A DNA stretch of 20,000 nucleotides, from the IMG/VR virus record IMGVR_UViG_3300029319_000021. One strand, given 5' to 3'. Source of the stretch: an uncultured virus (IMG/VR IMGVR_UViG_3300029319_000021) (taxonomy: Duplodnaviria > Heunggongvirae > Uroviricota > Caudoviricetes). The notes beneath the pieces were generated by a model. The model did not search any database and was not told the origin of the DNA. It saw only the letters and a list, made by a program, of their open reading frames with translations. The position numbers and the translations under genes were made by a program. The stretch's first letter is position 1. Each line of letters begins with the position of its first letter. Shown here piece after piece: positions 8,718 to 20,000 of this stretch.

Positions 8718-9893
8718 ATGCAATTACGTCCCCATCAGGAAAAAGCACTGGAAGCACTAGCAAGACATCCTAAGGGGCAGATCATCGTACCTACAGGCGG
8801 TGGTAAGACTCTTATTGCTATTAAGGATGCTATAAGAAGACTCAATGGTCTTACTGATCCAACTTTTGTTGTAGTTGCTCCACGCATCCTATTAGCAGAG
8901 CAATTATCATCTGAGTTCTTGGAAGAGATTGAGAATGTATCTGTGATGCACGTACATAGTGGTGAAACACATCATTATAGTACAACTAAGAGTGATAAGA
9001 TTCAAAAGTGGGTAAGAAATACACAGGGAAGTAAATTAATCTTTACAACATATCATTCACTTCATAGATTAGTAGAAGCAGATGTTGTTGTAGACACAGT
9101 ATATTTTGATGAAGCACACAACGCAGTACAAAAGAATTTCATAGAGTCAGTTGATTACTTCTCACTACCATTTAATTCTTTACGTTGCTACTTCTTTACT
9201 GCAACACCAAAGCACAGTAGAACACCTTTCAAGGCAGGTATGAATGATAGTGACATATTCGGTAATGTTATTTGTAATGTACCAGCACCTACATTAGTAA
9301 AGCAAGGTCATATTCTACCACCAAAGGTAAAAGTATATAAGACTGATATATTAAAGAAGGATGAAATAACATTCGATGTAGAATGTAATCAGATCATGAA
9401 TAATATTGATGACCATAAGACTAAGAAGATCTTAGTATGTGCTAAATCTACCAAACAGATTACAGGATTGATCTCATATCCTAAGTTCCTTGACGAATTG
9501 GAAGGTAGAGGTTATGATTGCATGTATATTACATCCAAGACTGGTGCTGTCATCAATGGTAAGAAAGTCAGTAGAGATGAGTTTTTTGAGACATTGAGTG
9601 CATGGGGTAAAGATGATGACAAGAAGTTTGTTGTCTTACATCACAGTATCCTAGCAGAAGGCATCAACGTAAAAGGACTTGAGGCAGTCTTATTTTTAAG
9701 ATCTATGGATTACATCGGAATATCACAAACGATAGGAAGAGTGATCCGTAAAGGTGGTAAAGACAAGACCTATGGATTAGTATGTGTTCCTGTGTATTCT
9801 AAGGTCGGTATTAGTACAGCCCGTAGAGTACAGGCAGTAGTCGATACTGTGTTTGAGAGGGGCGAACCTGCAATTAGTGTAGTTAAACGATGA
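8718..9893 (+). CDS. Superfamily 2 DEAH helicase (ResIII-like), no nuclease domain
   Basis: Q-motif LRPHQ, Walker A PTGGGKT, DEAH, motif III TATP, motif V LAEGIN, motif VI QTIGRVIR. Confidence 0.9.
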   Translation: MQLRPHQEKALEALARHPKGQIIVPTGGGKTLIAIKDAIRRLNGLTDPTFVVVAPRILLAEQLSSEFLEEIENVSVMHVHSGETHHYSTTKSDKIQKWVRNTQGSKLIFTTYHSLHRLVEADVVVDTVYFDEAHNAVQKNFIESVDYFSLPFNSLRCYFFTATPKHSRTPFKAGMNDSDIFGNVICNVPAPTLVKQGHILPPKVKVYKTDILKKDEITFDVECNQIMNNIDDHKTKKILVCAKSTKQITGLISYPKFLDELEGRGYDCMYITSKTGAVINGKKVSRDEFFETLSAWGKDDDKKFVVLHHSILAEGINVKGLEAVLFLRSMDYIGISQTIGRVIRKGGKDKTYGLVCVPVYSKVGISTARRVQAVVDTVFERGEPAISVVKR

Positions 9894-10846
9894 GAGACAC
9901 GATTTTATTTGGAGATTGTAGAGATACACTCACACAATTTGATGAACAGGCAAGAATGTGTGTTACATCCCCACCTTACTATGGTCTAAGAGACTATGGA
10001 GGGGAGGAGTCACAAATTGGTATGGAACAAACACCAGAGGAATATATTGATGAAATGGTCAAAGTATTCAGATTAGTGAGAGATTGTCTTACTGATGATG
10101 GCACACTATGGTTAAATATTGGAGATAGTTATTACAATTACCGAAGTGATGGAAACTATCCTAAACAAACAGTAAGTAGAACTAGACAAGACTTACCTGT
10201 TAAAACACCCGTTAGAGGAAATAAACTAGAGGGATTAAAGAGTAAAGATCTTATTGGTATTCCTTGGATGCTTGCATTTGCTCTAAGATCTGATGGATGG
10301 TATCTCAGACAGGACATTATATGGCACAAACCAAATCCAATGCCTGAGAGTGTGAGAGATAGATGTACCAAGTCACACGAGTATATTTTCTTATTAAGTA
10401 AAAACAAGAATTACTACTACGATAATGAAGCAATCAAAGAACCCGCAAAAGATTGGGGAACAAGAGACAGAACAAACGGAAAATACCACAACGAAGGAAC
10501 AGGACTCCAACCCCATAGCGGACTTACAAAATCATATCCAACAAAAAATAAACGATCTGTCTGGTCAGTAACTAAGAAACCATATAAAGGAGCTCATTTT
10601 GCTACATTTCCACCTGAGTTGATTGAACCCTGTATCAAAGCAGGAAGCGAGGAAGGAGACATCATATTAGATCCATTCATGGGATCAGGAACCACTGCTG
10701 CAGTGGCAAAATCGCTAGATAGAGACTATATTGGATGTGAGTTACATGAAGACTATGGTAGTCTAATTCAGAAAAGAGTGCAAGAATATCATCCAGTTGA
10801 AGAAGTGTCACAACAAACTACCATAAACATTTTAGATATTATATAA
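9890..10846 (+). CDS. DNA methyltransferase, N4/N6 beta class (probably N4-cytosine)
   Basis: Catalytic TSPPY near the N-terminus, then IIWHKPNPMPES, HFATFP and SAM-binding DPFMGSGTT. ATGA overlap with the helicase. Confidence 0.92.
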   Translation: MRDTILFGDCRDTLTQFDEQARMCVTSPPYYGLRDYGGEESQIGMEQTPEEYIDEMVKVFRLVRDCLTDDGTLWLNIGDSYYNYRSDGNYPKQTVSRTRQDLPVKTPVRGNKLEGLKSKDLIGIPWMLAFALRSDGWYLRQDIIWHKPNPMPESVRDRCTKSHEYIFLLSKNKNYYYDNEAIKEPAKDWGTRDRTNGKYHNEGTGLQPHSGLTKSYPTKNKRSVWSVTKKPYKGAHFATFPPELIEPCIKAGSEEGDIILDPFMGSGTTAAVAKSLDRDYIGCELHEDYGSLIQKRVQEYHPVEEVSQQTTINILDII

Positions 10847-12819: not shown

Positions 12820-12861
12820 GTCACACTAACCCTTGACACAATGTGTCAGGGGTTTTATAAT
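12820..12861 (+). promoter_or_regulatory. Sigma70 promoter with stem-loop (PeSL-like) C
   Basis: GTCAC half-box. 12-bp hairpin AACCCTTGACAC-aat-GTGTCAGGGGTT. Perfect TTGACA (12833-12838), 17 nt spacer, TATAAT (12856-12861). Confidence 0.85.
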
Positions 12862-12881: not shown

Positions 12882-13526
12882 ATGAGTCATTATAGAAAAG
12901 CACTATTTCCAATACACATTTATCAGACACATATAAAAGAGAATGAATTGATAAAAGATGAATTGTCAAATAACATTGAAAAATATGTTAAAGATAAATC
13001 ATTGAAAATTCCTGATGGTTGGCTTACAGATAGTCTACAAACATCATATGATTTTAGTACTGCTAATATAGAATTATTTGATACTAATAGTATTGTTCAT
13101 GATTATTATAAGAAATATCTCTATAAGATGTTTGATAAACCAGTAGAGTTAATTATAAGCGATATGTGGTTTAATTATTATTCAAACGGTGAGTATCAAG
13201 AACCACATCATCACATTAATAGTCTTTCTGTCACTAATAGACAAGCACATTTTTCATGTATTCATTATTTAAAATTTAATGAGAATGTACATGAACCAGC
13301 AATATTTTTTGATCCACTTGCATTAACAAGATGTCACTCTATAGAGTTGGATTCTAATAACTATAATGAAAGATATGTTCCAAATGTAAAAGAAGGAACT
13401 TTAATGATGTTTCCTTCTTATCTTGAACATTATGTATCAAAAAATGCACCGACTCCCGATGATCCAAGAGTAACGATTGCATTTAATATTATACTAACAA
13501 AATATGGAGATGATGATGGAAATTAA
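12882..13526 (+). CDS. 2OG-Fe(II) oxygenase superfamily protein (TIGR02466-like)
   Basis: LFPIHIY start, MWFNYY, QEPHHH, FSCIHYL, EGTLMMFPSYLEHYV, RVTIAFN. Confidence 0.85.
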   Translation: MSHYRKALFPIHIYQTHIKENELIKDELSNNIEKYVKDKSLKIPDGWLTDSLQTSYDFSTANIELFDTNSIVHDYYKKYLYKMFDKPVELIISDMWFNYYSNGEYQEPHHHINSLSVTNRQAHFSCIHYLKFNENVHEPAIFFDPLALTRCHSIELDSNNYNERYVPNVKEGTLMMFPSYLEHYVSKNAPTPDDPRVTIAFNIILTKYGDDDGN

Positions 13527-13998
13527 TTATAAGGATAAATTTTTTAATGAAACGGAACATAATATTATTAATCAATATTGTATAGGTGCATCATATCAAT
13601 ATGGTGAGGTAGATAATACTGAAACACCATGCACAGGAATGATTCATAATATACCTGAGACTGAGTTTGTACATAAACTATTTCGTAAGAAGTTGAGTGA
13701 TGAGTATAAAGAAGTCACGACTGATATGAAATTGTACAGGATGTATATTAATTGTTTTGCACCGAGTGAGAATCCATATTTTCATACTGATGGTGAGAAT
13801 GGCATTACATTTTTATACTATCCGAATATGAATTGGGATCTACAGGAAGGTGGAGAGACACAATTTTATATTAATGATGACATCTATGGCATTACACCAG
13901 TACCAAATAGAATAGTTATTTTTAGTGCAAATATAAAACACAGAGCTACAACATTTAGGAATAATCATCGCTTCACTGTTGCTGTTAAATATGCATGA
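13516..13998 (+). CDS. 2OG-Fe(II) oxygenase
   Basis: FHTD (HxD), TFLYYPN, GGETQF, PNRIVIF..IKHRA, RFTVAVK. Start chosen from SD GGAG at 13506-13509; alternatives are 13504-13513. Confidence 0.88.
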   Translation: MEINYKDKFFNETEHNIINQYCIGASYQYGEVDNTETPCTGMIHNIPETEFVHKLFRKKLSDEYKEVTTDMKLYRMYINCFAPSENPYFHTDGENGITFLYYPNMNWDLQEGGETQFYINDDIYGITPVPNRIVIFSANIKHRATTFRNNHRFTVAVKYA

Positions 13999-15372: not shown

Positions 15373-15708
15373 ATGGATAAAGTGAAACTATCTGATGTCA
15401 TTTTTCATTTCATGGAACTGTTCTTTTTAGAAGAAGCAAGTGGTCGTGTATGGGGTGCATCATCTAATTGTATTAAAGAGCGATGGAAATTATGTGAGGC
15501 ATGTGAGCACTATGATGAACCTGAAGAAGGGTGTAAGTATTGTATGTGTTATTTACCGAACAAGATAAAAGATCCTTTCGGTGAATGTCCACTAGATAAA
15601 TGGACAGCAAATTCAGAACAATGGAATGAAACTGATTATGAAATTGTTAAACAAAGAGTCATTGAATTATATCCAGAAATGGAGGATTATATAAATGGAA
15701 AAGATTGA
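15373..15708 (+). CDS. Small Cys-rich, probable metal-binding protein (DUF6171-like)
   Basis: RWKLCEACEH...GCKYCMCYLPNK...CPLDKW pattern. TGG-TATAAT at 15358-15366 upstream. Confidence 0.75.
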   Translation: MDKVKLSDVIFHFMELFFLEEASGRVWGASSNCIKERWKLCEACEHYDEPEEGCKYCMCYLPNKIKDPFGECPLDKWTANSEQWNETDYEIVKQRVIELYPEMEDYINGKD

Positions 15709-16291
15709 ATTAACTGGAGAATACAGTGATTTTATTGGTTCATATTCATGTGCCTATAACTCTGAGTTCTGTAGTGAGGTAATTAATGCCTTTGACTATT
15801 ATACATCAATGGATGCTGTTTATTGTGAAGATGGACAGTTTGAAAATTGTAATGCGGGAAGATTTGATTATGCAATAGACATGCAAGACATGACTCCAAC
15901 AATGAAAGGAGAACCATTATTAACATTAAATCAAACATTACAGAATAGTCTGGATGAATATACGAGAGTCTTTGGACATTTAAAAAGTGTTCCGTTGTAT
16001 AGTTGTGTGCAGAAAGTACAAATGACACCAGCTGGAGGAGGATATCATGTATGGCACGATGAAAATAGTGGATTACAACATTCAAATAGATGTTTAGTAT
16101 GGATGATATATTTGAATGATGATTTTAAGGGAGGAGAGACTGAATTTTTATATTACAAGAAAAGAATAAAAGCAGAGAAAGGAAAGTTATTAATATGGCC
16201 AGCAGGTATGACACATGCACATAGAGGAGGATTAGTACTAGAGAAAACAAAGTATATTGTAACTGGATGGTTCTATCTTGCTAATTTTTAA
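15695..16291 (+). CDS. 2OG-Fe(II) oxygenase (prolyl-4-hydroxylase-like)
   Basis: GYHVWHDE (HxE), LVWMIYLNDDFKGGETEF, WPAGMTHAHRG, KYIVTGW. Confidence 0.9.
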   Translation: MEKIELTGEYSDFIGSYSCAYNSEFCSEVINAFDYYTSMDAVYCEDGQFENCNAGRFDYAIDMQDMTPTMKGEPLLTLNQTLQNSLDEYTRVFGHLKSVPLYSCVQKVQMTPAGGGYHVWHDENSGLQHSNRCLVWMIYLNDDFKGGETEFLYYKKRIKAEKGKLLIWPAGMTHAHRGGLVLEKTKYIVTGWFYLANF

Positions 16292-17810: not shown

Positions 17811-17868
17811 GACAGTTTAACATAGTGGTACACAGACCCCTTTACAGGGGTTTTTTTAATGGTATAAT
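17810..17868 (+). promoter_or_regulatory. Early promoter / stem-loop element (PeSL-like) D
   Basis: GGACAGTTTAACATAGTGGTACACA box. Hairpin AGACCCCT-ttac-AGGGGTTT with a T-run. TTTACA, 16 nt spacer, TGG-TATAAT (17863-17868). Confidence 0.8.
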
Positions 17869-17894: not shown

Positions 17895-18434
17895 ATGAAA
17901 GTAACTAAACTTTCGGAGATTGTTGCTCTCGGTTTTGAAGAACTCATTACTGAAGGCGATACGAGAGAAATAGGAAAATTTCTTGCTTTCCCAACTGAGA
18001 GAATCATAGCACCACAATGGCTACGAGAGGAGTGTGGTGTTTATACAGAACAATCACCTGATGATGATGAAGGACAACAAGAGAAGTATGATAGACTATC
18101 TACCAATGGTTTAAGAATACAGGTCAAGTTTCGTGGTGGTAAAACATTACACATGGAGCAAACTAGAAGAACAACAGGGAAAAATGCAACTGCTGGTGCA
18201 AAAAATGGTCAAGTACGTTATGCTATTGGATCATTTGATGTTATACTATTCATTATTCCTACCAACCATAATAATATAGATGATTGGGAATATCTAGCAA
18301 TTCCAAACTATGAATTAGAAGATGATAAAATGAGTGGGTATTGTGTTGGTCAAATACCAAGTAGATTGAGAAGGAAGTATGCAGGTAGAGCAAAAGAAGT
18401 GATTACAGCAATGGAAGATGCTAAACGAGTATAG
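17895..18434 (+). CDS. Putative PD-(D/E)XK-fold endonuclease (type II restriction enzyme candidate)
   Basis: TE...KYDRL...RIQVKFR catalytic-like motif, later FDVILF. SD AAGGAG. Overlaps an MTase gene. Confidence 0.55.
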   Translation: MKVTKLSEIVALGFEELITEGDTREIGKFLAFPTERIIAPQWLREECGVYTEQSPDDDEGQQEKYDRLSTNGLRIQVKFRGGKTLHMEQTRRTTGKNATAGAKNGQVRYAIGSFDVILFIIPTNHNNIDDWEYLAIPNYELEDDKMSGYCVGQIPSRLRRKYAGRAKEVITAMEDAKRV

Positions 18435-19401
18435 TATTGGTGATAGTAAAGAACTACTGAAAGAAGTAGAATCTAGTACAGTGGATTTAATTTATATTGA
18501 TCCACCGTATTGTACTGGACGAGATTTCTATCATTTTGATGATAGATTTAAATCTAGTAGTGACTATAGAGAATTATTGATAAGACCATTAATACTAGAA
18601 TGTCATAGAGTATTGAGTGATGTTGGTAATCTCGTAGTGCATGTTGAACCAAAAGTATCTCATCATATTAGAATTGTATTGGATGATGTATTTGGTGAGA
18701 CTAGATTTAAGAACGAGATAGTATGGATCTCTGGTGGTAATCATAAATCAAAGAAACAATTACAACGTAATCATGATACTATAATTGTTTATCAAAAGGG
18801 TAAAGAATCAATATACAATCCCGAACATAGAGAATATGATGCTGAGACAGTAAGAAAAGCAAAGATATGCCCATATCGTAAAAAGAAATATAATACATCC
18901 GCACTGGTAAATAGACAACCAAATGTAGTATCGAGACCTAATCTAAGATATGAATGGAATGGAAACCATTTACAATGGCATGTTTCGAGAGAGAGAATGG
19001 AAATGTTACATAATGATAATAGGTTAGAGTATTCATCTAATACAGGTATTCCAAGAGTCAAGAAGTATCTTGATGAAATGGATGGTATTCCAATTAAAGA
19101 TGTATGGTCAGACATTAAACAAATACAGGGAATAGAAAAGTTGGATTATGCTACACAGAAACCAGTAGCATTATTGAATAGAATTGTGAACATGTTTAGT
19201 AATGAGGGATCAACTGTATTGGATCCTTGTGCTGGTAGTGGTACAGTTGGTAGATCTGCTATACTAACAGGCAGAAATTATATACTATTTGATCTCAATG
19301 AAGATGGTAAAGCATTATTCAATAAATCGCTAGTGGGGCTTGTGCCACTTCATAAAGAGTCACAACCAATGTTGAATCCCCTTGAAAATCTGTTATATTA
19401 A
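18418..19401 (+). CDS. DNA adenine (N6) methyltransferase, beta class
   Basis: DLIYIDPPY, FKNEIVW, YATQKPVALLNRIV, VLDPCAGSGT. Confidence 0.92.
   Translation: MLNEYSIGDSKELLKEVESSTVDLIYIDPPYCTGRDFYHFDDRFKSSSDYRELLIRPLILECHRVLSDVGNLVVHVEPKVSHHIRIVLDDVFGETRFKNEIVWISGGNHKSKKQLQRNHDTIIVYQKGKESIYNPEHREYDAETVRKAKICPYRKKKYNTSALVNRQPNVVSRPNLRYEWNGNHLQWHVSRERMEMLHNDNRLEYSSNTGIPRVKKYLDEMDGIPIKDVWSDIKQIQGIEKLDYATQKPVALLNRIVNMFSNEGSTVLDPCAGSGTVGRSAILTGRNYILFDLNEDGKALFNKSLVGLVPLHKESQPMLNPLENLLY
19342..19399 (+). promoter_or_regulatory. Early promoter element E inside the MTase 3' end
   Basis: GTGCCACTTCATAAAGAGTCACAA box. TTGAAT (19372-19377), 16 nt spacer, TGT-TATATT (19394-19399). Confidence 0.65.
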
Positions 19402-19405
19402 ACAT

Positions 19406-19480
19406 GGGAAACAAACATACTAAGTCATTAGATGACTAAAGACACAACTAGCATAGTTGTGACGGTATTTTTTGTTTCTC
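19406..19480 (+). ncRNA. Putative structured RNA / leader 1 (three-way junction)
   Basis: Closing stem GGGAAACAAA/TTTGTTTCTC extended by ATAC/GTAT. Internal hairpins AGTCAT-tag-ATGACT and CACAACTA-gca-TAGTTGTG. Starts 7 nt after the -10. Confidence 0.6.
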
Positions 19481-19507
19481 TCACCTTCCAAACCTGACTT
19501 TTTTATT

Positions 19508-19621
19508 ATGTCACCTAATTTTGCAGAATTTCTTTTGGACACTACCAACAATGGAAATGAGATCCTAGCAGTTCTCGAAGATATTGTAGAGGTAGTAGAG
19601 ACAGGAGGAACCGACCTATAG
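19508..19621 (+). CDS. Small acidic peptide, 37 aa (MSPNFAEFLLDTTNNGNEILAVLEDIVEVVETGGTDL)
   Basis: Translated by hand. It is the plausible + strand ORF between RNA 1 and element F. 8 D/E, no K/R. Confidence 0.6.
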   Translation: MSPNFAEFLLDTTNNGNEILAVLEDIVEVVETGGTDL

Positions 19622-19680
19622 GACAATTTAATTAGTGTCACAAGCCCCCTTCACAGGGGGTTTTTTAATGCTATTATAAT
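19621..19680 (+). promoter_or_regulatory. Early promoter / stem-loop element (PeSL-like) F
   Basis: GGACAATTTAATTAGTGTCACAA box. Hairpin AAGCCCCCT-tcac-AGGGGGTTT with a T-run. TTCACA, 16 nt spacer, TGC-TATTAT (TATAAT overlaps it). Confidence 0.8.
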
Positions 19681-19684
19681 AGTG

Positions 19685-19766
19685 GGGAAACAAAACAGGC
19701 AAGGATCTATGGTTGTCTTTGTTCAGCAGAGAAATTACGTCCTGTAAGTCCTAGTTTTTGTTTCTC
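19685..19766 (+). ncRNA. Putative structured RNA / leader 2 (multi-way junction)
   Basis: Closing stem GGGAAACAAAAC-AGG / CCT-a-GTTTTTGTTTCTC. Internal hairpins CAAGGAT/GTCTTTG and TTAC/GTAA, possibly TTC/GAA. Confidence 0.55.
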
Positions 19767-19790
19767 GCATCCAATTATCCCCTTATTCCT

Positions 19791-20000
19791 ATGGCAAGAG
19801 AAGGACTACCCACAGGTCAAATGCAAGAAGAGACACAGGAACTTCTTGATGAGTATAATGAACTCTACAACTGGGAGTACAACGATATGGTTGACTTCAT
19901 TAAGAGTTATGGAGAGGAAGCATTTAGAGAGTATTATGATGACTATCATGGTCAAGTAGATGAGTTAGGTATCGAACCAGTTGAAGCATTTATAGAAGTA
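19791..20000 (+). CDS. Highly acidic early protein, 3'-truncated; possible ArdA-like antirestriction / DNA mimic
   Basis: Translated by hand: MAREGLPTGQMQEETQELLDEYNELYNWEYNDMVDFIKSYGEEAFREYYDDYHGQVDELGIEPVEAFIEV. 20 D/E versus 3 K/R in 70 aa. Confidence 0.6.
   Translation, partial: MAREGLPTGQMQEETQELLDEYNELYNWEYNDMVDFIKSYGEEAFREYYDDYHGQVDELGIEPVEAFIEV

Follow-up and report, generated by a model that had tools for sequence, protein, structure and literature searches.

Two structured RNA elements, referred to here as RNA1 and RNA2, were identified towards the end of a 20,000-nucleotide stretch of the uncultured virus record IMGVR_UViG_3300029319_000021 (the whole of this stretch is termed the window), and they very probably belong to a large, uncatalogued family of 5' leader RNAs that are structured, portable and carried by T4-like cyanomyoviruses. 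The cassettes to which such leaders belong can be read as a host-type promoter, optionally preceded by a terminator hairpin, and then a purine-rich arm, an interior that is folded and exchangeable, and a pyrimidine-rich arm that pairs back onto the first. These are followed by a G-poor spacer of 19-30 nt without a Shine-Dalgarno word, a small early open reading frame (ORF) and the next terminator. The family, so defined, is widespread and covarying, with at least two dozen interchangeable folded domains carried on one shared closing helix (the handle), and it is absent from Rfam and undescribed in the literature searched. The cyanomyoviruses that infect Prochlorococcus and Synechococcus rank among the most abundant marine viruses, and the control of their early host-takeover genes is poorly known.

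Both elements, of 75 nt (RNA1) and 82 nt (RNA2), were found to begin with the 5' arm GGGAAACAAA (19406-19415 and 19685-19694) and to end on the 3' arm TTTGTTTCTC (19471-19480 and 19757-19766), with the second pair of the helix being G.U in each case, as the initial annotation of this DNA had stated. The handle closes the minimum-energy fold of both RNA1 (-23.2 kcal/mol, z -5.15, none of 200 shuffles being equally good) and RNA2 (-24.0 kcal/mol, z -2.98, one of 200 shuffles), and the closing helix was still present once downstream sequence was included in the folding. The interior of RNA1 consists of a second stem (CAUAC/GGUAU) and hairpins at 19423-19437 and 19443-19461, and that of RNA2 of an internal loop (CA opposite GUAAGU) followed by a single long irregular hairpin. 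The two or three hairpins originally ascribed to each interior were thus found in RNA1 (two, plus the second closing stem) but not in RNA2.

Host-type promoters were identified ahead of both elements, with the -10 box ending 6 nt ahead of 19406 for RNA1 and lying 7 nt ahead of 19685 for RNA2, in agreement with the earlier proposal that transcripts from these promoters begin at the handle. From these distances, the transcript would start at or within approximately 2 nt of the first G of the purine-rich arm. The RNA1 promoter overlaps the 3' end of a methyltransferase ORF (18418-19401), and it lacks a hairpin of the kind found at the RNA2 promoter. The latter has a 16-nt spacer and a TG-extended -10 box (TATTAT, 19672-19677), with its -35 hexamer TTCACA (19650) situated in the loop of a terminator hairpin (CCCC-TTCACA-GGGGG and a T run, 19646-19666). 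The pyrimidine-rich spacer without a Shine-Dalgarno word and the acidic ORF that had been noted after each RNA were also verified, both ORFs having an isoelectric point (pI) of 4.05 (for the second, over the 70 aa inside the window).

From the window alone, chance is excluded only modestly. With up to one mismatch allowed, the 5' arm was matched five times in the window against 1.84 expected (8 of 200 shuffles reached five), and for the 3' arm there were five matches against 2.89 expected (31 of 200 shuffles). The real support for the family comes from copies outside the window.

Relatives, covariation and modularity

A search of IMG/VR viral stretches was performed with a pattern consisting of the exact handle arm, 45-75 nt and the exact handle arm. 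The pattern was present in at least 121 viral stretches, among which 66 distinct elements of 65-95 nt were counted. The same pattern gave 55 hits in 596 Gb of cellular genomes, distributed over unrelated taxa and at chance level. A -10-like box upstream combined with a (G/T)CACC-type box downstream was found for 109 of the 121 listed viral hits versus one of the 55 cellular hits. Across 89 distinct upstream contexts, a -10 box (at least five of six positions matching) lies 6-8 nt ahead of the handle in 78, 4 nt ahead in seven and is absent from four, with an extended TG in 44 contexts and a GTGTCACA-like box farther upstream in 64. This box is situated approximately 45 nt ahead of the presumed start, upstream of the terminator or -35 hexamer, and many related cassettes also possess a terminator hairpin upstream of the promoter.

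Downstream of the handle, an ATG was found at a distance of 19-30 nt in 109 of 114 ORF-bearing elements (nine of 123 elements having no ORF). The intervening spacers have a composition of T 0.34, C 0.30, A 0.28 and G 0.07 (79 distinct). The products encoded after them (n = 79) have a pI below 5 in 59 cases and of 7 or higher in 18, and the proposition that all downstream proteins are acidic does not quite hold on account of the latter.

Related modules were identified in the cultured phages P-SSM2, P-SSM5, P-SSM7, S-SSM4 and S-SSM6b, and the leader family is thereby open to testing. The handle element of P-SSM2 is 138 nt in length and was the sole convincing copy recovered by a script run over that genome, with seven looser hits being equalled by seven in a reversed control. 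For RNA1, relatives were located with a 15-base anchor that gave mostly chance matches; six of the 120 listed matches were relatives (five of them distinct), indicating that there are at least five. No match to RNA1 was found among 50,697 GenBank phage records.

Alignment of these relatives showed covariation in the stems. Across RNA1 and its five distinct relatives (six sequences), 29 of 29 pairs are kept and 100% paired, with compensatory changes in three pairs. The RNA2-type alignment (12 sequences, the rows having been selected by script on condition of a flanking helix of 6 bp or more) pairs in 98.0% of cells, and compensatory changes were observed in 11 of 32 pairs, six of them in the closing helix. 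None of 500 shuffles reached the real value, and slid controls paired in 43-58% of cells. Pair 2 of the handle was found as G.U, C-G, A-U or U-A across copies, and the same interiors are also closed by other helices (GCG.../...CGC, GAG.../...CUC, GUG.../...CAC, four-A/four-U and a GUUGAGRG-type). Because the same interiors can be closed by handles of different sequence, it follows that the stem is a genuine RNA helix in which the G.U pair is not essential. The fold is also strand-specific, since the + strand folds more stably in 58 of 67 distinct elements and the reverse strand of RNA2 reaches only -13.8 against -24.0 kcal/mol on the + strand.

For clustering, the 121 listed viral elements were combined with the two of the window, giving 123 elements, 111 of them with an ORF within 60 nt. 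Twenty-five interior classes were distinguished among the 123 elements, and the 111 with an ORF cover 20 protein families and 47 class-family combinations. The interior class of RNA2 (19 elements) occurs ahead of six protein families and that of RNA1 (six elements) ahead of five, with the anti-restriction family being preceded by nine interior classes. Annotated downstream families were anti-restriction, DUF7717 and Kyano_Gp96, with no known function for the others.

With regard to the initial annotation, its idea of a modular family with an exchangeable payload holds on these counts and on the compensatory stem changes. The further copies and covariation that it had advised looking for in virome sequences were both found, with compensatory changes in RNA1, in the RNA2-type alignment and in the core56 module described below. 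Its fixed handle stands as a common stem with an exact form shared by the viral stretches counted above, but not as a fixed sequence, given the other arms that close the same interiors. Anti-defence genes, which it had suggested as the genes under control, are represented by the one family annotated as anti-restriction, the other families bearing no such annotation. It had also recognised no named RNA family, and Rfam 15 gave no match in the window at the gathering threshold and seven matches at E up to 10, all far under the family threshold, while a tRNA was the sole match in 10 related loci.

The recombination of interiors and genes exactly at conserved ends, seen in the 47 combinations, could alternatively mean that handle, promoter and spacer are mainly DNA-level recombination seams resembling promoter-early stem-loop (PeSL) cassettes, with the RNA fold having little function of its own. 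The upstream terminator/promoter composites do fit the PeSL description in the accessible text of PMC4122927, and the cassettes occupy a syntenic hot spot behind the DNA methyltransferase gene, one common to the window, P-SSM2 and P-SSM5. This explanation is regarded as highly unlikely, however, as the pairing of arm with arm is unnecessary for homologous recombination and the compensatory changes in handle and interiors show selection on RNA pairing. The G.U pairs and the strand asymmetry point in turn to an RNA of the + strand, and a target-site duplication was not seen at the window copies. A miniature inverted-repeat mobile element was likewise rejected on the missing target-site duplication at either window copy, on arms that pair via G.U and on the preference for the + strand.

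Portable interior modules

The hairpin of RNA2 was found to constitute a portable module, here termed core56. Unannotated intergenic DNA of P-SSM2, P-SSM5 and single-cell virus contigs matches the region 19697-19753 at 87.7-98.2% identity, compared with 74-89% for the coding matches flanking it. A degenerate core56 pattern was present in at least 121 viral stretches and was not found in cellular genomes of 185,579 species, and host RNA mimicry by core56 was rejected at the search stringency used. Among 73 distinct copies of 60 nt, pairing is seen in 98.3% of cells and both-side changes in 8 of 20 pairs (104 cells), with columns 15-25, 29-33 and 37-46 fixed by the search pattern so that approximately 10 pairs were free to vary. 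None of 500 shuffles reached the real value, and slid controls paired in 41-54% of cells.

A 12-codon ORF within core56 (19710-19748, with AAGGA just upstream) was rejected as coding, as its variable codons are the compensating positions of the stem, some pairing partners lie outside the ORF and the stop codon is missing in one of the 73 copies. The module is situated alone inside the handle in the window, is present twice in tandem at L165 and L195, and at some loci adjoins a promoter directly, closed by nothing more than a short stem of its own. Contigs from three marine metatranscriptome runs were found to carry approximately 50 other letters in place of the core56 apical loop (19717-19729), an instance of nesting.

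A further interior, module A, is a highly conserved leader domain of approximately 60 nt that has covarying stems of its own and a loop, ACUUAGAAG, that does not vary. It was identified in P-SSM2 (L001 1346-1483), P-SSM5, P-SSM7, S-SSM4 and S-SSM6b and at loci L261-L342, is unannotated and is absent from Rfam; core56 is often inserted precisely into its ACUUAGAAG loop. The 82 module A loci were fetched with an interior-only pattern that left the flanks unconstrained, and at least nine different complementary arm pairs were found to close the module. These are GGGAAACAAA / TTTGTTTCTC (pair 1), GGGAAAACAAA / TTTGTTTTCTC (pair 2), GCGAAAACAAA / TTTGTTTTCGC (pair 3), GGAAAACAAA / TTTGTTTTCC (pair 4), GCGAAACA / TGTTTCGC (pair 5), GAGAAACAT / ATGTTTCTC (pair 6), GAGAGACA / TGTCTCTC (pair 7), GAGTGAAACA / TGTTTCACTC (pair 8) and GTTGAGAGAT / GTCTCTTAAC (pair 9). 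Purines dominate the 5' arm and pyrimidines the 3' arm in all nine listed pairs, a bias which points to a constraint beyond pairing.

Handle-closed module A also occurs behind two other promoter-like signals (L266, L322, L338, L341 and L269, L295, L342), namely a GGGGGA...TGTCC(C/T)TATAGTG motif and a TATAAAT-containing motif, the second of which we take to resemble a T4-type late promoter. In many leaders, core56 is followed by a third conserved element composed of GAGGAGATGGATGTGCC, a covarying hairpin and GAAAGAACTAACATCC (e.g. L001 1560-1612 in P-SSM2 and L002 1637-1690), and a fourth conserved element has the form ...GGTTCAGGTGTAAGCGATTCCC...GGTAAATTTGGGC...; neither of these matched Rfam.

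Conservation of this kind bears on whether the interiors are themselves functional RNAs, that is, binding sites, decoys or small RNAs for host or phage factors with the handle as a carrier stem. The module would then be made at the onset of infection and might be freed either when transcription terminates in the U-rich 3' arm or when the RNA is processed at the stem base. Interior and loops are highly conserved (core56 more closely than its flanking genes, by the identities given above), the core56 columns free of the search pattern are invariant, and the UAAGU loop is common to 26 of 67 distinct elements. Modules are also independent of the gene that follows, as the 47 combinations and their occurrence before a tRNA and between genes indicate, and most downstream proteins are small and acidic, with one family being anti-restriction. 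Release of the module would be helped by the U-rich 3' arm directly after the stem, and a terminator scan listed the second hairpin of RNA1 (19443-19461) with the T-rich run behind it, but the stems that adjoin the U-rich stretch are weak and enclose a long interior, which sets them apart from efficient intrinsic terminators. The absence of core56 from the cellular genomes searched leaves no host RNA mimic at this stringency. Twenty-five unrelated interior classes would furthermore demand many different partners, and functional RNAs of this type are considered somewhat unlikely.

It is unlikely, too, that the 25 or more portable RNA domains on one carrier stem are effectors released as stable RNAs of 65-95 nt. 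Such effectors would be transcribed as soon as infection begins, as the leaders of early genes that include anti-defence genes, and might trap host nucleases, defence proteins or regulatory RNAs in the manner of aptamer-like decoys or sponges. Should the domains bind host factors, they would represent a new class of phage RNA effectors, and in the effector form an RNA counterpart of protein anti-defence islands.

A possible role in protecting early messages

The role tentatively favoured for the leaders, as a possibility falling somewhat short of a probable one, is that they stabilise short early mRNAs. In bacteria, 5'-terminal stem-loops stabilise mRNAs; cyanobacteria possess RNase J as well as RNase E, and the RNase E of the host plays a part in cyanophage infection. 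The closing helix would bury the 5' end of the transcript and the interior would form a compact fold. As a terminator ends each unit (19646-19666), each mRNA would be short, with structure at either end, and such monocistronic early messages could resist 5'-end-dependent decay by host RNase E or RNase J. The unstructured G-poor spacer would remain free for Shine-Dalgarno-independent initiation. Because their loops are conserved in sequence, some interiors are suggested to bind a specific factor as well, for instance via the UAAGU internal loop adjoining the handle, and the conserved ends of promoter, handle and spacer may double as seams at which interiors and genes are reshuffled. If the leaders do stabilise early messages, the survival of short phage mRNAs against host RNases would be explained.

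An action in cis on transcription could be envisaged for the same architecture, the leaders either modifying RNA polymerase so as to promote its read-through of the island terminators, in the manner of the put RNAs of phage HK022, or acting as an attenuator or riboswitch-like switch. The elements are promoter-proximal, 65-95 nt long and multi-stem, the units of the island are all bounded by terminator hairpins, and the same modules stand behind three promoter-like classes. The U-rich 3' arm can, in addition, join either the closing helix or a terminator-like tail; however, no mutually exclusive alternative pairing was found, and the closing helix persists in the presence of downstream sequence. 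One polymerase- or ligand-binding fold is unlikely to be common to 25 unrelated interiors, and no Rfam riboswitch or leader family was matched in the window or the 10 related loci. An action of this type is thus judged distinctly improbable.

Several observations weigh against leaders that protect early messages, or against the family as drawn here. Interior loops appear to be conserved beyond what a passive cap would need: the columns of core56 that the search pattern did not fix (CA, UC and the UAAGU loop) show full or at least 90% invariance, and TAAGTCC adjoins the handle in 26 of 67 distinct elements, the interiors of which are unrelated. The module is not always placed where it could bury a 5' end, as core56 follows a handle-closed module in P-SSM2, and is thus not at the 5' end, and is nested in the loop of another interior in P-SSM5 and at many loci. 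The leader module before the 37-aa gene of P-SSM7 lies behind a terminator-like hairpin without a visible promoter. At L335, module A is directly upstream of a tRNA gene, from which it follows that leader domains are not limited to protein-coding messages. The anti-restriction gene of phage P-TIM68 has a plain leader with a Shine-Dalgarno word, which makes the handle leader dispensable for this gene. A Shine-Dalgarno-like word was found in 9 of 79 distinct spacers compared to 4 of 22 other window genes, and its absence was consequently rejected as a hallmark of handle cassettes.

Certain of the structural data also belong on this side. When folded with downstream sequence, RNA2 is no better than its shuffles (z -0.97), and the outer pairs of the RNA2-type alignment are partly ascertained by the flanking helix required of its rows. 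As a moderate control, a helix of at least 8 bp was formed by 35 of 49 arm pairs from the same element and by 640 of 2074 cross pairs. Four marine metatranscriptomes contained parts of both elements, in flanking sequence that varied; these are assembled contigs that run upstream into the promoter, and so they show neither starts, ends nor transcription as such.

Genomic setting and comparison with known systems

Based on its gene content (a tail protein, a tail fibre, a helicase, two DNA methyltransferases and 2OG-Fe(II) oxygenases) and on its closest DNA matches, which were Prochlorococcus and Synechococcus myoviruses, the window is assigned to a T4-like cyanomyovirus. Both cassettes sit after a DNA methyltransferase gene, and the same position in P-SSM2 and P-SSM5 bears related leaders. 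The two DNA methyltransferase genes (phrog_67) of the 20-kb window are located at 9890-10846 and 18418-19401, with three 2OG-Fe(II) oxygenase-like genes between them (12882-13526, 13504-13998 and 15695-16291). Three composite terminator/promoter units were identified in the window (12829-12861, 17834-17868 and 19646-19677), each built of a -35 hexamer in the loop of a G+C-rich hairpin, then a T run and then a -10 box. The first two of these serve genes with short plain leaders and a Shine-Dalgarno word, with no handle leader.

The features of the two cassettes are listed in the table. A PHROG search with the 37-aa ORF gave no family. The homologue in P-TIM68 of the ORF starting at 19791 carries an anti-restriction protein annotation, and a related copy of this ORF gave a weak Pfam match to ArdA (E 0.004, under the cut-off).

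Table. Features of the RNA1 and RNA2 cassettes in the window
Feature	Position	Strand	Description
Upstream box GAGTCACA	19357-19364	+	Weaker copy, ahead of the RNA1 promoter (promoter E)
RNA1 promoter, host-type	19372-19399	+	-35 TTGAAT 19372-19377, 16-nt spacer, TG 19391-19392, -10 TATATT 19394-19399
RNA1 leader module, 75 nt	19406-19480	+	Closing helix 19406-19415 with 19471-19480
RNA1 spacer, 27 nt	19481-19507	+	G-poor, pyrimidine-rich, starts TCACC, without Shine-Dalgarno word
Acidic ORF, 37 aa, pI 4.05	19508-19621	+	Conserved in P-SSM7 (PSSM7_070) and uncultured contigs
Upstream box AGTGTCACA	19634-19642	+	Ahead of the RNA2 terminator/promoter
RNA2 composite terminator/promoter	19646-19677	+	Flagged as both a terminator-like and a promoter-like site
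RNA2 leader module, 82 nt	19685-19766	+	Closing helix 19685-19699 with 19750-19766
core56, portable hairpin module, ~55 nt	19698-19752	+	Identity to other virus DNA, covariation
RNA2 spacer, 24 nt	19767-19790	+	G-poor, pyrimidine-rich, starts GCATCC, without Shine-Dalgarno word
ArdA-like anti-restriction gene start, acidic	19791-20000 (gene cut by window end)	+	phrog_36653, E 2e-27

No description of handle leaders was found in literature searches, the coverage of which excluded most subscription papers. Among known phage RNAs, the put RNAs of HK022 are nascent two-stem RNAs that make RNA polymerase terminator-resistant, and T7 has RNase III processing hairpins between its early genes, one of which precedes an anti-restriction gene. 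By general description, both resemble the handle leaders in being irregular hairpins in a promoter-proximal or intergenic position of phage early transcripts. The ompA leader is a 5'-terminal stabiliser stem-loop, and stabilisers of this type are simple hairpins specific to one gene. The handle leaders would share with them a helix that takes in the first transcribed nucleotides and is followed by an unstructured ribosome-loading region, but they are multi-stem, have conserved interiors of at least 25 classes and are swapped among genes.

Rfam motifs reported for T4-like cyanophages, in the accessible text of PMC2864571 and PMC12197685, are manA, wcaG, PhotoRC-II, glnA, abiF and CfrI, and none of these was matched in the window or in the 10 related loci. 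The first four are similar to the handle leaders in that they are structured RNAs in potential cyanomyovirus 5' untranslated regions, known mostly from marine metagenomes (Weinberg et al. 2010, PMC2864571; PMC12197685). As described in those parts of the sources, they are tied to particular metabolic gene classes, whereas the genes behind the handle leaders are small early genes of many unrelated kinds.

The PeSL cassettes of T4-type phages (Arbiol et al. 2010, PMC2839356; Comeau et al. 2014, PMC4122927) are compared here as presented in the accessible portions of these papers. They consist of a terminator-like stem-loop fused to a host-type early promoter, an arrangement found at 19646-19677 for RNA2 but not at the RNA1 promoter, and they likewise repeat ahead of small variable genes in hyperplastic regions, where genes are shuffled. 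Points of gene swapping, as in PeSLs, are evident for the handle cassettes from the 25 interior classes, 20 protein families and 47 combinations, and from the shared locus of P-SSM2 and P-SSM5. The word cyanophage does not occur in PMC4122927, and few PeSLs were found in S-PM2 according to the available part of a cyanophage study that considered them (PMC4503421). The two layouts differ in that the stem-loop of a PeSL lies upstream of the promoter, with a Shine-Dalgarno sequence and start codon right after the promoter (PMC4122927, accessible text), whereas handle cassettes hold a transcribed, covarying modular RNA of 65-95 nt between promoter and ORF and possess a Shine-Dalgarno-like word in only 9 of 79 spacers. 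Relative to the PeSL as there described, with a Shine-Dalgarno sequence and the start codon at its end, a transcribed modular leader therefore constitutes an addition to the layout.

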